Source: a virus
Strand: one strand, 5' to 3'
IMG/VR virus record: IMGVR_UViG_3300045988_147738
Coordinates: 102,432 to 166,431 of that record
Length of the DNA stretch: 64,000 nucleotides
The position numbers and the translations under genes are program-made. Shown here piece by piece: positions 24,347 to 28,117 of the stretch. The notes beneath the pieces are model-generated. The model was not told the origin of the DNA. It was given only the letters and a program-made list of their open reading frames with translations, and did no database searches. Position 1 is the stretch's first letter; every line of letters starts with the position of its first letter.

Positions 24347-25030
24347 CTATGCACTATATACGCATTTATCACAACGAACAGTTGCTTTATGCTCCTCTAA
24401 CATTTCTTTTTGAGTTAAACGAGCGGGAAAATCAGGGGCCTTGCGCTCTATCGGAGCAGGAGTTGTTTCCTCTTCATCAAGGTAAGAACGACATTCTCTT
24501 ACTTTGGCATTCATTTGCTCGATAATAATATCAAGACTTACAGGATAGCCATCATGAGAATCAACTCCAACATGATACATAAATGGCAAATCATTATAAA
24601 AATTGGTAGTCTGATGGGTATGTCCAAACAAATTACAAGTGCATTGTTTCAAACTTTCTTTCTCCAAATTACCAGTCATACAAGGAAAATGTGTCATAAA
24701 AAAATGATATTTTCTATAATCTAACATAATCGCCCATGATGCTTCTACCACATTAGGAAGTTCAGCATACATTTTACGCCGATTATTAGTATCATGATTA
24801 CCATATACAATATGGATTTTACCATTGAGTTTCTTAATATACTCAATATTAGAAGGGTCGCCAAGCATTAAATCGCCCAGGCAATAAACATCATCTTCAA
24901 GGCCAACCACGCTATTCCAACGATTCACGTATGCATCATTCATTTCTTGGATGGACTTAAATCCACGAACCTTCCAGATGAATTCTCGGTCATGCCCGAA
25001 GTGCATATCTGACGTAGCGAAAATCGCCAT
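24347..25030 (-). CDS. Calcineurin-like metallophosphoesterase (candidate 2',3'-phosphatase partner of the adjacent kinase)
   Basis: Metallophosphatase motifs DMHFGHD…GDL…GNHD…GHTH. Confidence 0.65.
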   Translation of the reverse strand: MAIFATSDMHFGHDREFIWKVRGFKSIQEMNDAYVNRWNSVVGLEDDVYCLGDLMLGDPSNIEYIKKLNGKIHIVYGNHDTNNRRKMYAELPNVVEASWAIMLDYRKYHFFMTHFPCMTGNLEKESLKQCTCNLFGHTHQTTNFYNDLPFMYHVGVDSHDGYPVSLDIIIEQMNAKVRECRSYLDEEETTPAPIERKAPDFPARLTQKEMLEEHKATVRCDKCVYSA

Positions 25031-25530
25031 TACTTATCACTCCATTCATTAATATTTCCATTTTCATCGACTTCAAGGATACGATTATAATGGTATTTTT
25101 CATTAAAGGTGGGGTAGCGGTAAGAAGCATACATTTTGGTAATTACATCAGTCGGCACATGAGCTCGGCCAGTTCGCTGAGAATTACGATCAATGCACAC
25201 ATTCAAAGGAACTTTAAAATAAATGACATTGATATTAACGTCATTTAAATTTAAACGATCAAGAATTTTATTGCGAGAACGTTCATTCAAATGAGTGGCA
25301 TCAAGAATAGTATGCTCATTTTCTTGGAGACTATTCTTAATAGCATCTACATACATATTCTAGACAGTATCTTCGTTCTTAAAATAAGAGTCTCCATCTC
25401 CAAGGAGTTTAAAACGAATGGCATCACGAGAAACAATTTTTGCTTTAGAGCTATTAACCTTATTAGCAAGGAAAGTAGATTTACCACTTCCAGGCACTCC
25501 GGCAATGAGCCACAGAGTCTTCGACTTCAT
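25030..25530 (-). CDS. P-loop polynucleotide-kinase-like kinase (AAA_33/Pnk family); one in-frame TAG
   Basis: MKSKTLWLIAGVPGSGKSTFL…(TAG)NMYVDAIKNS…; the C-terminal half equals track ORF 25030..25356. The kinase/metallophosphatase pairing resembles bacterial Pnkp. Confidence 0.55.
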
Positions 25531-25735
25531 TCGCATACACCCCTTCGTTAAAATTTTTCAAAAATTCTTCAATGTCAGTCTCATTCTTGCATTCGATATG
25601 ATTGACTTCTTCCTTACAATAAGGACAATACAATTTCTTACGATGGAAACGTTCGTGTTGATGACTTGTGCGTCGAGCCAACGGAATACCTCGATGGCCG
25701 CACTTCATACAATAAAATGCGTGCTCTTCAAACAT
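25481..25735 (-). CDS. Zinc-ribbon protein
   Basis: CMKCGHRG…CPYCKEEV; its 3' end overlaps the kinase start by ~50 nt. Confidence 0.35.
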   Translation of the reverse strand: MFEEHAFYCMKCGHRGIPLARRTSHQHERFHRKKLYCPYCKEEVNHIECKNETDIEEFLKNFNEGVYANEVEDSVAHCRSAWKW

Positions 25736-26001
25736 TACTTATCCTCATCTTCCGAATCAAATTTAATATTATCAAACAACTCATTATTAAGATAGGAATT
25801 AGACAGAGCAATGTCTTCGAAGAGGCTGCCAGTCATAAGCTGCACCATCCAAATCAAACCATACATGCTCCAAAAACTGATTGGCTCAATGTTAAACATA
25901 GGGACAAGAATCAATCCCCAAAGCCAAGTGCATACAGCAGACGGCACCAGAAACAACACGCCAACCAACAGGATCGAAATAATAAACATCATATTTATCA
26001 A
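25735..26001 (-). CDS. Small membrane protein
   Basis: Two predicted TM helices; promoter at ~26013–26053. Confidence 0.4.
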   Translation of the reverse strand: MINMMFIISILLVGVLFLVPSAVCTWLWGLILVPMFNIEPISFWSMYGLIWMVQLMTGSLFEDIALSNSYLNNELFDNIKFDSEDEDK

Positions 26002-26012
26002 TTCCTTTCTTA

Positions 26013-26053
26013 ACTTTCTATATATATTATAATATATTTTTTATAAAAAATCA
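26013..26053 (-). promoter_or_regulatory. Sigma-70-type promoter, one of the ~25-copy conserved family (TTGATT-17-TATAAT, then ATATATAGAAAG leader)
   Basis: Minus strand reads TTGATTTTTTATAAAAAATATATTATAATATATATAGAAAGTTAAGAAAGGA followed by the gene start. Confidence 0.5.
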
Positions 26054-26746
26054 AAAACAGAGCTTATAGCCCTGTTTCTGATTTATAAGCCTGGTATAAT
26101 GCTTTTTCCTCTGACATCCATTTGCGATACCCAGTATAGCGGTTTACCAATAATACTTTGTCGCATTTGCTGCATCTGTAGAGAGAAAAAACTGTATTGA
26201 CATAAAATGGAACAGGCTCTGCTTTATGAAAATGTAAATTAATCATAATTAAAAATTTCCACTTTTTAAATCTTCATCAACAACTGTATCAAAATCATAA
26301 TCTTCATCAAAAAGATCTTCAAGAGTTTTATCAGGATGATTTTTTAAATAACACTCTTTCAAAAAATCACCAAGTGAATCTCCATACCATGACCAGTTAT
26401 CAACGCCGCCGCTTTGAAGTGCCAAATATTTCAGATAACCGCAATAAATACGCTTAAATTTATCGTCACTCAGAGTAATATTTTTTTCCATCAATCTTTC
26501 TCCTTTTGGACTTCATAGTGGCCGGGCACCCACACAAGGTTTTCACCATTTTGCTCTTCCCAAGCATCAGCCATCTCTTCGATGCATTCAATACAACAAG
26601 TCCATAAACTTAAGCATTGATCGCGAACTAAATCCTCTGAAATTTTATCCCATAATGCTTCTGGAATACGAGGGCGAATTTCATTGATACATTCATTTCG
26701 AGTGTTCCGCTCGACCATTGCTGAATCGAGCGGAACTACTACAGGG

Positions 26747-28117
26747 TCATACTTCATCCTGTGCTTCCTCCATATCAGGAGCCTCAGCTTCTGCCTTTAC
26801 AAGACCTTCCAAACACTTGAACTCGAAATTCTTATGCTTGTAGGCACAGAACTTAGGCTTATTGACAATACGGACAACTACGCCCTCACGAGTATGAGTT
26901 TTGCCAATCGGGTCGGGGCCAGCATAATACTGCTCAGCCTTTTCCATTACCCATTCTCCCGCAGTCATACCCGCGTCATTCCAATCAATAGTTTCATCAG
27001 CGAAACCCTTCCACATAACAGGAACAGTCTTACATCCCATCTGCTCACAACGATAACGCATAAAGTCAGGAGAATACTCTACTACGTCGCCATCCTCATT
27101 AGTCATAGTCATACGATAAACGTAGAGTTCAGACTGAGGAACTTCCTCATGAGAACCGTCAGGATAAGTATTATATCCAGTAGGAGAACAGCCATAGGAG
27201 AAGGTAGTAGTTTCGCCATACTGCTTGATAAATGCCTTATCATTCAGCTTCTTATTCGCCGCAGATGCCATAATAGGAGCACCAGTATCAGTGAAGCCAA
27301 CAACTTCGTAATATACTTCCTCACCCTTGTGGAGCTTGCCCTCGAAGAACTTAGAATGCTGTTCACGGAACAGGTTAGAACCATAGAAACCACCATTAAA
27401 ATTCTCCAGAACAGTACGTCGAGTACCAGATACATAACCCCACTCATAAATAGGAGTACCATCACGCTTCATAATCTTATCCCACAGAGAACGCTTATAA
27501 CCCTTAAATACGGGCAAATAACCAGTGCGCTGAGAAGTGCCATGCATCTTCAAAGTAATTTCAATCTGGTCACCCACCTGGAATGCGCCAAGGTTATAGG
27601 CCAGCTGCTCAGTATCTGCGTGTTCAGTGAAGAGAGGAGCAATAGGAACCTTTTTCTTACGAGTACGATTTCCTTCAGTAGGATTGCCAGTTCGCTTATT
27701 AGAATGAGGAATATACTTCTGACAAATTTGATGACCATTAATAGTATCAATAGTATCTCCAACTTTTAAATACTGAGAAGCATCATCGTTAAACAAATAA
27801 TCAAATGCCTGAATAGATATATAAATACCATCAGACTTTTCACCGCGCAGCTTAATGGTAGAAACATTGCGCTTATTGGGGTCCATATAACCAGTATCAG
27901 GAGCACCACAAGGATACTTTCGCAGCAGATGATTATGCATACAAAAATCCAACTCTAGCTGGAGATCAGTGGGAAAATAAACGCCAATATCGCCAATTTT
28001 TACATCCAGACCAACACAGGTATCATTTCCGAAGAAGGTCGCTACCTGAAGGCGGTCAGCATTAGTATGAGGACGCAGCTTTTCAACTTTAACAACGTAT
28101 CCAACATGCTCAGACAT
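26747..28117 (-). CDS. ATP-dependent RNA ligase (Rnl1-like nucleotidyltransferase)
   Basis: Ligase motif I RGEKSDGIY (KxDG), motif IV EGVVVRIV, motif V AYKHKNFEFK. It is a second ligase distinct from the DNA ligase at 8184..9395 and sits next to the Pnk-like kinase/phosphoesterase pair. Confidence 0.55.
   Translation of the reverse strand: MSEHVGYVVKVEKLRPHTNADRLQVATFFGNDTCVGLDVKIGDIGVYFPTDLQLELDFCMHNHLLRKYPCGAPDTGYMDPNKRNVSTIKLRGEKSDGIYISIQAFDYLFNDDASQYLKVGDTIDTINGHQICQKYIPHSNKRTGNPTEGNRTRKKKVPIAPLFTEHADTEQLAYNLGAFQVGDQIEITLKMHGTSQRTGYLPVFKGYKRSLWDKIMKRDGTPIYEWGYVSGTRRTVLENFNGGFYGSNLFREQHSKFFEGKLHKGEEVYYEVVGFTDTGAPIMASAANKKLNDKAFIKQYGETTTFSYGCSPTGYNTYPDGSHEEVPQSELYVYRMTMTNEDGDVVEYSPDFMRYRCEQMGCKTVPVMWKGFADETIDWNDAGMTAGEWVMEKAEQYYAGPDPIGKTHTREGVVVRIVNKPKFCAYKHKNFEFKCLEGLVKAEAEAPDMEEAQDEV

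Follow-up and report, generated by a model that had tools for sequence, protein, structure and literature searches.

Phages that encode a polynucleotide kinase, a phosphatase, and an RNA ligase are usually taken to carry them as antidotes to host defenses that cut tRNA. Metal-independent anticodon nucleases leave a 2',3'-cyclic phosphate and a 5'-OH, and it is established for T4 that mending such a break takes a kinase, a phosphoesterase, and a ligase. Here we analyze genes of this kind in a 64,000-nucleotide stretch of DNA (the window) from a gut phage, IMG/VR record IMGVR_UViG_3300045988_147738, positions 102,432 to 166,431. All of its healing and sealing genes are on the minus strand, as are the other genes, tRNAs, and RNA elements whose window coordinates are given below. 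The core is a cassette of an RNA ligase (26747 to 28117), a Pnk-type kinase (25030 to 25536), and a metallophosphoesterase, MPE-1 (24275 to 25030). On the basis of sequence comparisons, we give an even chance to the proposal that this cassette is a phage RNA end-healing and sealing system whose substrates most likely include the phage's own tRNAs.

In its presumed mode of action, this enzyme set resembles T4 Pnkp/Rnl1, bacterial Pnkp, or Trl1, yet it belongs to none of these families, having an Rnl5-type ligase and phosphoesterases of the YfcE and lambda types. As in T4, there are a phage 5'-kinase, a 3'-phosphoesterase, and an RNA ligase, and tRNA-Lys(UUU) is a plausible client. In contrast with T4, the ligase is Rnl5 type, metallophosphoesterases (HD enzymes in relatives) take the place of the DxDxT acyl-phosphatase, and the kinase and phosphatase are separate proteins. 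The kinase resembles the kinase domain of Pnkp in the Clostridium thermocellum Pnkp/Hen1 system, and a second metallophosphoesterase of the window, MPE-2, is of Pnkp's lambda-phosphatase type. However, bacterial Pnkp is a trifunctional fusion with a ligase of another family, whereas the genes are separate here, and Pfam scans of the window open reading frames (ORFs) turned up no Hen1 methyltransferase.

Jumbo-phage RNA-repair systems (Iyer et al. 2021; PMC7824862) have the same ligase, Pnk, phosphoesterases, RlaP-type nucleotidyltransferase, and large tRNA array, and possible scaffold proteins (Band-7, MVP-like, and DUF2828) and tRNA-like RNAs in the window also fit them. To that set the window adds recoding of TAG, putative tRNA-linked ribozymes akin to that of hepatitis delta virus (HDV), and tRNA-shaped inserts. 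What is known is the phage RNA-repair gene set; what appears to be new is its context of recoding, a suppressor tRNA predicted to be processed by a ribozyme, and tRNA-shaped inserts that are apparently non-self-splicing and partly mobile.

Two further groups of phages are relevant. In phages with theta ribozymes, "RNA ligase, DRB0094 family" is 140-fold enriched and is found in 54.5% of genomes, and CCA-adding enzyme is 250-fold enriched (Kienbeck et al. 2024; PMC10879173). In that study, the ligase was proposed to act in connection with aminoacylation or CCA, and neither the cyclic phosphate nor a kinase nor phosphoesterases were taken into account. The window resembles these phages in having putative HDV-like ribozymes that abut tRNA 3' ends (including that of a suppressor), TAG recoding, and a ligase of the DRB0094 family. 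Lak megaphages, which represent another lineage and have another host, carry an "enigmatic" tRNA "Thr(TGT)" with a tRNA-looking intron, offset by one nucleotide, for which no mechanism was proposed (Devoto et al. 2019; PMC6784885). The tRNA-Lys gene of the window shows exactly the same pattern, and Lak phages also carry a homologue of the ligase.

Among the protein-dependent tRNA splicing systems that we compared, which include the permuted tRNAs of Cyanidioschyzon, the Trl1 and archaeal pathways resemble this locus in acting on anticodon-loop inserts that do not self-splice, in the domain set of Trl1, and in the presence of homing endonucleases within inserts, as in archaeal introns. They differ in that the phage insert is itself tRNA shaped, with boundaries at its own +1 and CCA, and lies at positions 34|35 and 35|36 rather than 37|38.

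The RNA ligase

The ligase, a protein of 456 amino acids, carries at its N terminus an OB fold of the tRNA-binding/PheRS-B2 type, and its nucleotidyltransferase domain is C terminal; there is no domain after motif V, and the protein stops 27 amino acids past K429. In an alignment of 47 homologues, residues K190, E271, E411-G412 (within EGVVV), K427, and K429 are invariant. Motif I is K190-M-H-G-T-S, so of the three motifs named in the original prediction, which was made from the DNA sequence alone, EGhVh and KxK are present as described, but the first is KxHG instead of KxDG.

As a single sequence, the ligase matches Pfam PF09414 with 26.9 bits (cutoff, 27), the PHA02142 OB domain, and phrog_968 "RNA ligase" (3e-63), and it has no matches in the PDB. 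A profile of the 47 diverse homologues matches the Naegleria gruberi RNA ligase NgrRnl in the PDB (9e-10) and then, weakly, T4 Rnl2. The AlphaFold (AF2) model of the ligase (pLDDT 91) gives a full-length Foldseek match to NgrRnl (E value, 2e-17; TM, 0.70), followed by T4 Rnl2, REL1, and archaeal Rnl3 enzymes, while a Trl1-type ligase reaches just 1e-3 with a TM of 0.27 to 0.31 and T4 Rnl1 is not among the top 50 matches. The OB domain resembles the tRNA-binding OB folds of PheRS-beta, EMAPII/p43, and YtpR both by profile comparison with the PDB and by Foldseek. The best NCBIfam family is TIGR02306 RNA_lig_DRB0094 (3e-10), with 39.4 bits against a cutoff of 151.

Based on these profile and model comparisons, we conclude that the phage ligase is predicted to be an Rnl5-type enzyme of a divergent phage subfamily (PHA02142/phrog_968). 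It is like the Rnl5 enzymes DraRnl and NgrRnl in its N-terminal OB and nucleotidyltransferase domains, in ending shortly after motifs IV/V, and in having KxHG, but it is ~115 amino acids longer, is 14 to 16% identical to NgrRnl, and falls far under the equivalog cutoff. The original prediction of an Rnl1-like ligase is ruled out by the profile and Foldseek results, by the KxHG motif I, and by the absence of T4 Rnl1 from the leading structural matches; the same results place the enzyme in RNA ligase families and not in DNA ligase families.

Homologues of the ligase comprise 2222 cluster representatives. Phage records with a homologue number 380, including 296 mycobacteriophages (Cjw1 among them) and Tsamsa-like Bacillus phages. 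Also among the 380 are 15 Prevotella phage records, at least two of which are Lak megaphages. Homologues of ~800 amino acids (P0123, P0130, P0135, P0140, and P0141) match the query in two separated stretches, which suggests inteins or other insertions in the ligase gene of some relatives.

Kinase and phosphoesterases

The kinase gene (168 codons) consists of two ORF pieces in the same frame, 25360 to 25536 and 25030 to 25356, joined by an in-frame TAG at 25360 to 25362, and its AAA_33 match (7.5e-22) spans the TAG codon. The P-loop, LIAGVPGSGKST, occupies residues 13 to 21, and D38 and R41, within SRDAIR, are in a pattern that we take to be that of the catalytic residues D35 and R38 of T4 Pnk. 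The protein matches phrog_505 polynucleotide kinase (2.5e-28) and, in a phmmer search of the PDB, PSTK (2e-8), the C. thermocellum Pnkp kinase (3e-7), Pnkp1 (5e-6), and T4 Pnk (4e-5). We conclude that the gene encodes a Pnk-type protein with predicted polynucleotide 5'-kinase activity. The three Pnkp and Pnk matches bear out the Pnk-like kinase of the original prediction, with PSTK as an equally good match. The domain searches gave neither of the outcomes named beforehand as refuting the prediction, a ligase of DNA ligase families only and a nucleotide or dNMP kinase.

The start codon of the MPE-1 gene overlaps the kinase stop, so that translation of the two is coupled. The ORF as first delimited (24347 to 25030) stopped at a TAG at 24347 to 24349, and the frame passes this codon and runs for 24 more codons to a TAA at 24275, giving 251 codons including the read-through TAG. 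The C-terminal tail is Cys rich (CxxC...C...C/DPPDGGYYG) and is conserved in the family. All five metallophosphoesterase motifs are present (D8/H10, G52-D53, G77-N78-H79-D80, H114, and G136-H137-x-H139) and are at least 90% conserved in both homologue alignments; the homologues number 2261. MPE-1 matches Metallophos_2 (3e-10), phrog_547 (5e-44), and NCBIfam TIGR00040 yfcE. A single-sequence search of the PDB had no matches, and Foldseek finds Aquifex aq_1665/1xm7 (1.5e-9), MJ0936, and YfcE. The prediction of a calcineurin-type phosphoesterase at this position therefore stands as far as the motifs are concerned, but a Pnkp/lambda-type phosphatase is rejected for MPE-1, since its closest folds are of the YfcE/MJ0936 type.

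The enzyme that fits the Pnkp type instead is MPE-2 (32489 to 33274; 261 amino acids), which was overlooked in the first reading of this DNA. It matches PF00149 (4e-16), phrog_246 (4e-38), phrog_8238, and lambda phosphatase 1g5b (6.7e-10), has a weak match to the phosphatase region of bacter_Pnkp (TIGR04075), and also resembles ApaH. A Metallophos gene is upstream of the ligase in L002 (a related contig), L004, and L005 as well. Likewise overlooked was an RlaP-like Pol-beta nucleotidyltransferase (30004 to 30810; 268 amino acids) that matches phrog_388 (1e-25) and, with 20.7 bits against a cutoff of 23, PF10127 RlaP.

A CYTH protein, or triphosphate tunnel metalloenzyme, had been predicted inside the tRNA array, and this is confirmed. 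The ORF (54444 to 54970; 175 amino acids) opens with MEIERKWLL at 54970, with the EIERK motif at residues 2 to 6. The single sequence has no Pfam match, and the family profile matches NeuTTM (2fbl) and CthTTM (3typ) in the PDB with 2e-35; homologues are named CYTH or have PF01928.

Conservation of the cassette

The order of ligase, small ORFs, kinase, and MPE-1 recurs in the metagenomic contig L002 (199 kb) and in six contigs of IMG/VR (L011 to L016), and a kinase homologue lies no more than 4 kb downstream of the ligase in 22 of 29 IMG/VR ligase loci. In distant loci and in Bacillus phage vB_BcoS-136, whose ligase is 48% identical to that of the window, the kinase is instead fused to an HD phosphohydrolase (PF01966; 6.8e-9). 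In T4, the phosphoesterase partner of the healing enzyme is of the DxDxT type. The strongest sequence argument that these genes form an end-healing and sealing system is thus that the phosphoesterase partner varies by lineage while the link between kinase and ligase is kept.

MPE-2 and the RlaP-like nucleotidyltransferase are also within 6 kb of the cassette. In the Lak megaphage Lak-C1 (L040; 4588 to 5397, 7968 to 9506, and 11307 to 12104), the genes for a Thg1-like 3'-5' nucleotidyltransferase (3e-25) and a metallophosphoesterase flank that of the ligase homologue, again a grouping of tRNA-end enzymes.

Recoding of TAG

In-frame TAG codons are found at 8504, 10151, 24349, 25362, 29247, and 37936 and in many ORFs at 41 to 64 kb. 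Those at 10151 and 8504 join conserved halves of GyrA and the ATP-dependent DNA ligase, respectively, and others are in the genes for SHMT, the kinase, MPE-1, an endolysin, a PhoH/PIN protein, an MVP-like protein, and homing endonucleases, and in two radical-SAM ORFs. The tRNA array includes an amber suppressor tRNA with anticodon CUA and no encoded CCA (46959 to 47030; ARAGORN; Rfam, 55 bits). Because conserved gene halves are joined across in-frame TAGs and a CUA suppressor tRNA is present, we conclude from the sequence that TAG is a sense codon in this phage genome. At three TAG sites near the ligase, close relatives have TGG (kinase), TGG (MPE-1), and CAG (SHMT), and Trp and Gln are candidates for the amino acid inserted. 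A search of the phage collection by DNA found no close phage relatives of the window. Since the kinase and full-length MPE-1 carry an in-frame TAG, they can be made only if the phage CUA suppressor works.

HDV-like ribozymes at tRNA 3' ends

Three tRNAs of the window, none of which has an encoded CCA, are followed directly after G73-C74 by a putative HDV-like ribozyme, a feature not recognized in the first reading. The one after tRNA-Asp (56542 to 56616) is at 56473 to 56541 and is a full-length match to Rfam HDV-F-prausnitzii (34.4 bits; E value, 3e-4), under the gathering score of 44. A minimal, theta-type ribozyme follows the suppressor tRNA at 46906 to 46958. Its helices (P1, GGCAUUA/UAAUGCU; P2, GUAAGAA/UUCUUGC; P3, ACC/GGU) were read by eye, and Rfam gives just 12.2 bits. 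The third candidate, at 60146 to 60200, adjoins an interrupted tRNA (60201 to 61011); it was also read by eye (P1, GGGAAC/GUUCCU; P2, CCACAAU/AUUGUGG; P3, ACC/GGU) and has no Rfam match. Read by eye, all three have a G·U pair at the start of P1, where cleavage would occur; P1 and P2 covary among the copies, whereas the sequence of P3 does not differ. The relative L008 encodes a CCA after the suppressor tRNA and has no ribozyme there; compared with L008, the window carries the suppressor ribozyme as an insertion.

In HDV-type cleavage, the upstream product is left with a 2',3'-cyclic phosphate. After a putative cut past C74, this group would therefore have to be taken off before C75-A76 could be joined. 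On this sequence evidence, the putative ribozymes at tRNA 3' ends represent the clearest need for end healing in the window.

Two observations concern related elements. Metagenome contigs L046 and L048 have an uninterrupted tRNA-Gln without CCA that is followed by G-C|GGTATCA..., seemingly another HDV-like ribozyme after C74. A Twister-P1-like element (55218 to 55269; 46 bits; E value, 1e-8) lies 58 nt upstream of tRNA-Ser/tRNA-His; its score is under the gathering score, and one stem is deleted.

Interrupted tRNA genes

The tRNA array comprises 24 ordinary tRNAs detected by ARAGORN at 42.4 to 58.8 kb, with 2 more detected by Rfam. Other tRNA genes are interrupted. The tRNA-Lys(UUU) gene (42714 to 42900; ARAGORN; Rfam tRNA, 51.8 bits over 184 nt) has a 112-nt tRNA-shaped insert at 42756 to 42867, between U34 and U35, whose boundaries are fixed by the uninterrupted allele in five relatives. 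The insert begins with G+1 of a 7-bp acceptor-like stem (GGUGGAA/UUCCGCC) and includes a canonical T-arm (AUGAG-UUCAAAU-CUCAU); its last nucleotides are U73-CCA. No copies of it were found elsewhere in viral contigs.

The tRNA-Gln(UUG) gene (47943 to 48139; ARAGORN) carries in its anticodon a similarly built insert of 121 nt, at 47984 to 48104 (CGAGAAA...T-arm...UUUCUCG-C-CCU). Uninterrupted alleles of tRNA-Gln and tRNA-Arg were absent from viral contigs, but Gln alleles were later found in metagenomes, and the uninterrupted loop CUUUGAC in these contigs confirms the Gln junction. The exon-exon junction predicted after splicing is GGCACAGGACTTTGACTCCTGCATC, and all DNA alleles of this tRNA in the phage clade are interrupted. 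The gene is interrupted in 6 of 6 close genomes, in which 1 of 76 exon sites is variable, compared with 6 of 43 flanking sites (p = 0.009). Substitutions in the Gln insert spare its acceptor stem and T-arm. Together, the uninterrupted Lys and Gln alleles establish that split tRNA genes, as originally predicted, are real.

A third insert, of 907 nt (53333 to 54239), is in a probable tRNA-Arg(UCU) gene (53291 to 54275; ARAGORN). It has tRNA-like ends (GUUAAAU...T-arm...AUUUAGC-U-CCA) and contains a GIY-YIG homing-endonuclease ORF with in-frame TAGs. We found no uninterrupted allele of this gene, and the junction, probably GGTCTTCTAAACCGT, is assigned by analogy with the other two.

The tRNA-Leu(UAA) gene (43878 to 44732) is of a different kind. 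It has a 768-nt group I intron with an HNH ORF at U34|A35. Relatives carry this tRNA without an intron or with a 337-nt intron that lacks the ORF, and the intronless alleles fix the junctions. The ORF-less intron matches Rfam Intron_gpI RF00028 over its full length (44.9 bits; E value, 2.5e-10; gathering score, 50), U is the last nucleotide of the 5' exon, and G is that of the intron. Because this is a self-splicing group I intron, no ligase is required for tRNA-Leu, and the notion that every interrupted tRNA of the phage needs a ligase is rejected. The anticodons that ARAGORN gives for the interrupted genes (Thr-tgt, Glu-ttc, Arg-tcg, and Phe-gaa) are likewise refuted by the uninterrupted alleles, which are Lys-UUU, Gln-UUG, and Leu-UAA; the Lys gene is miscalled as Thr and the Leu gene as Phe.

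A group I intron would not fit into the 112 and 121 nt of the Lys and Gln inserts, and tRNA-shaped inserts that do not self-splice in this way would need a nuclease and a ligase. Their junctions are at the +1 and CCA of the 7-bp acceptor-like helix, with unpaired stretches of 3 nt and 8 nt. An archaeal or eukaryal intron was rejected, since the junctions have no bulge-helix-bulge and no splicing endonuclease homologue was found among the scanned ORFs.

Several other features of the array were observed. Homing endonuclease genes lie in or between tRNA genes at 59446 to 60090, 49725 to 50291, 60251 to 60943, 53357 to 54142, and 44033 to 44479; two are GIY-YIG, two are HNH, and one is an intron ORF sharing the C-terminal DNA-binding module. 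All but one have in-frame TAGs. Three tRNAs are odd: Phe(AAA), whose anticodon loop is shortened as aligned by Rfam (55958 to 56030), Ile(UAU) (54360 to 54434), and a weak, 35.8-bit tRNA with a poorly paired acceptor stem (56174 to 56243). A highly conserved promoter-like consensus, AAAAATATAtTATAATATATATAGAAAGTTAAg, occurs in about seven copies in the tRNA region (61064, 58914, 58819, 57343, 49586, 43518, and 44519).

Permuted tRNA-like elements

Three elements of 129 to 133 nt, 97 to 100% conserved in relatives, have the parts of a tRNA in permuted order. Element 1 (45015 to 45147; 99 to 100% conserved in 5 relatives) has a CCA-UAU loop; element 2 (48329 to 48458; 97 to 98% conserved; fold z-score, -3.7) has a canonical anticodon arm (CUGAUAA); and element 3 (51951 to 52079; fold z-score, -3.95) abuts tRNA-Ile. 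Each has, in order, a promoter-like TATAAT...AAAG, a leader helix strand, a CAGCAA motif, a T-arm, the acceptor 3' strand, a loop of 3 to 6 nt, the acceptor 5' strand, a D-arm, and a trailer helix strand, and the leader/trailer helix closes the element.

When the elements were considered as genuine permuted tRNA genes, the rejoined forms gave a tRNA for only one of the three, an implausible Ile(AAU), and in elements 1 and 3 no canonical anticodon arm can form. Element 3 matches Rfam YrlA (37.9 bits; E value, 3e-7), but it was rejected as a Y RNA, since the gathering score is 69 bits, the columns of the Ro-binding helix are deleted, and the tRNA-like module alone is matched. From sequence and predicted folding, we conclude that these are real permuted tRNA-like RNAs, not demonstrated tRNA genes; the "permuted tRNAs" of the original prediction thus exist as circularly permuted elements, but their standing as tRNA genes does not follow.

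Similar transcription-unit leaders (TATAAT..AAAG, a helix strand, and (A/C)CAGCAA) occur at five sites, 52081, 48460, 47107, 45149, and 44826. They are paired with a complementary trailer ending in CTTG 80 to 240 nt downstream, forming panhandles that enclose the three permuted RNAs, the unit of suppressor tRNA plus ribozyme, and an element of ~85 nt just upstream of tRNA-Leu.

Other genes in the window

The cassette is set among genes of replication and nucleotide metabolism (SHMT, gyrase, DnaB, and DNA ligase). A small zinc-ribbon protein of 84 amino acids (25481 to 25735; phrog_1257, 4.8e-11; weak CoiA_N match) overlaps the kinase start, an arrangement kept in L002, and a small ORF between ligase and kinase (26249 to 26494) has a motif like that of T7 gp5.9, a RecBCD inhibitor. 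A flotillin/Band-7-like gene (22811 to 24199) abuts MPE-1. A gene like that of the major vault protein (MVP; 35567 to 38062) adjoins one for a DUF2828/DUF7788 "RNA-binding protein" (38230 to 39759), which matches phrog_850 (5e-136); searches gave no evidence that the latter is TROVE-like, and a single-sequence search of the PDB had no matches. Band-7, MVP-like, and DUF2828 proteins are reportedly found in RNA-repair neighborhoods, and the trio recalls the vault- or Ro-like scaffolds proposed for RNA repair. Beside the tRNA array are two adjacent large ORFs (61371 to 62729 and 62726 to 64000) of 452 and at least 424 amino acids, with 4 and 8 in-frame TAGs; one has a radical-SAM-type CxxxCxxC motif.

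Proposed function and alternatives

The sequence comparisons make a dedicated role of the cassette in tRNA maturation and splicing plausible, as follows. One or both phosphoesterases would remove 2',3'-cyclic or 3'-phosphates, including the C74 cyclic phosphate of the three CCA-less tRNAs, and a CCA-adding activity, either of the host or of the RlaP-like enzyme, would then complete the 3' end. RNase P would cut at the insert +1, the 5' junction, of tRNA-Lys, tRNA-Gln, and probably tRNA-Arg, and some endonuclease would cut the 3' junction, 3 nt past the discriminator of the insert. These two cuts would give exons with 3'-OH and 5'-phosphate ends, which the Rnl5-type ligase would seal. The kinase would phosphorylate 5'-OH ends arising from host anticodon-nuclease damage or on ribozyme-side fragments, and repair of such damage would be a compatible second use of the system. 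The splicing and ligation pathway of the original prediction is retained in part: three tRNAs have inserts that would need a nuclease and a ligase, but tRNA-Leu(UAA) self-splices, and cuts at +1 and CCA need no healing.

We also suggest, tentatively and with more doubt than confidence, that the tRNA-shaped inserts may be a new class of mobile, protein-dependent phage tRNA intron, cut at its own +1 and CCA ends by RNase P and a CCA-measuring endonuclease and rejoined by an Rnl5-type ligase, with phosphoesterases healing the C74 ends that theta ribozymes leave. Like mobile introns, one of the inserts encodes a GIY-YIG homing endonuclease. In the literature, we found no description of tRNA-like or tRNA-shaped introns or of such a splicing pathway.

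Several points weigh against a role in maturing the phage's own tRNAs. Ligase homologues are common in phages, including the many mycobacteriophages and the Bacillus phages listed above, and we know of no report of tRNA-linked ribozymes or interrupted tRNAs in those with homologous ligases. No annotated tRNA is present in the 50 kb inspected around the vB_BcoS-136 cassette. Five close relatives with an uninterrupted tRNA-Lys all keep the cassette, and in L008, the one relative examined for its suppressor tRNA, the CCA of that tRNA is encoded. The top PDB match of the kinase is PSTK, and the closest structural relatives of MPE-1 are generic phosphodiesterases. Cuts of the RNase P and RNase Z types at +1 and CCA yield ends that need neither a kinase nor a phosphoesterase, ribozyme cleavage puts a 5'-OH on the ribozyme side only, which leaves the kinase without an obvious substrate among the phage's own tRNAs, and host enzymes may be able to heal the cyclic phosphate ends. 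No nuclease for the 3' junction of the inserts was identified. Finally, the Rnl5 enzymes characterized to date prefer duplexes, whose nicks they seal, and fail to circularize short single-stranded RNA (PMC1807946); a break in the anticodon loop is not a nick of that kind.

The same preference weighs equally against sealing of the anticodon loop in the strong rival to this proposal, the classical role of countering defense. Here the cassette would only reseal tRNAs cut by host anticodon nucleases (PrrC/RloC/colicin-like or PARIS-type), and the co-occurrence of ribozymes and inserts would reflect the common ancestry of large tRNA-rich phages. We regard defense repair as the sole function as possible but on the unlikely side. 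The end chemistry of metal-independent anticodon nucleases calls for the full set of kinase, phosphoesterase, and ligase; the neighboring Band-7, MVP-like, and DUF2828 genes fit, if their reported association with RNA repair is accepted; many mycobacteriophages and Bacillus phages carry ligase homologues; and relatives in which fewer tRNAs are interrupted or linked to a ribozyme still have the cassette. In PMC7824862, a jumbo-phage anti-defense RNA repair system is described with this set of genes (ligase, Pnk, phosphoesterases, RlaP, and tRNA arrays). However, defense repair leaves unexplained the maturation of three tRNAs with a predicted C74 cyclic phosphate, the constraint on tRNAs with inserts that are not self-splicing, and the 140-fold enrichment of the ligase family in theta-ribozyme phages. 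Defense repair and a maturation role may also coexist.

In a very unlikely alternative, the ligase would seal nicks with an RNA 3'-OH strand during replication (primer-DNA junctions or embedded ribonucleotides), and the kinase and phosphoesterase would tidy the ends of DNA or RNA, an activity that T4 Pnkp has on DNA. Rnl5 enzymes do seal duplex nicks with an RNA 3'-OH strand, and the cassette lies among SHMT, gyrase, DnaB, and DNA ligase genes. Loss of DraRnl reportedly makes Deinococcus radiation sensitive, which is consistent with such a role. However, the phage has its own separate ATP-dependent DNA ligase, the N-terminal domain of the cassette's ligase is a tRNA-binding type of OB fold, the enzymes encoded near ligase homologues (RlaP-like here and Thg1-like in Lak-C1) suggest work on the ends of RNA or tRNA, and the published enrichment is with tRNA-linked ribozymes. 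That the genes are neighbors without a common pathway, with a kinase acting on nucleotides or aminoacyl-tRNA as PSTK does and with protein or dinucleotide phosphatases, would agree with PSTK as the best PDB match of the kinase and with the resemblance of MPE-2 to lambda protein phosphatase and ApaH and of MPE-1 to generic YfcE phosphodiesterases, but it is barely credible given the linkage of kinase and ligase in 22 of 29 loci, the fusion of the kinase to an HD phosphohydrolase in other lineages, the overlap of the kinase stop with the MPE-1 start, and the fit of D38 and R41 to the presumed Pnk catalytic pattern.

Significance

The tRNA genes of this phage themselves create end types that kinase/phosphatase/ligase kits handle, by way of predicted cyclic phosphates and inserts. 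If the link between these tRNAs and the cassette is true, it would explain the 140-fold enrichment of the DRB0094/Rnl5 ligases in theta-ribozyme phages. The functions of Rnl5 enzymes have been called "uncharted" (PMC5397189), and the phage tRNAs would provide the first physiological function and substrate for this family. The "enigmatic" tRNA introns of Lak megaphages would be solved, and protein-dependent tRNA splicing would exist outside archaea and eukaryotes. Expression of a recoded genome would then hinge on the phage's own RNA-repair kit.

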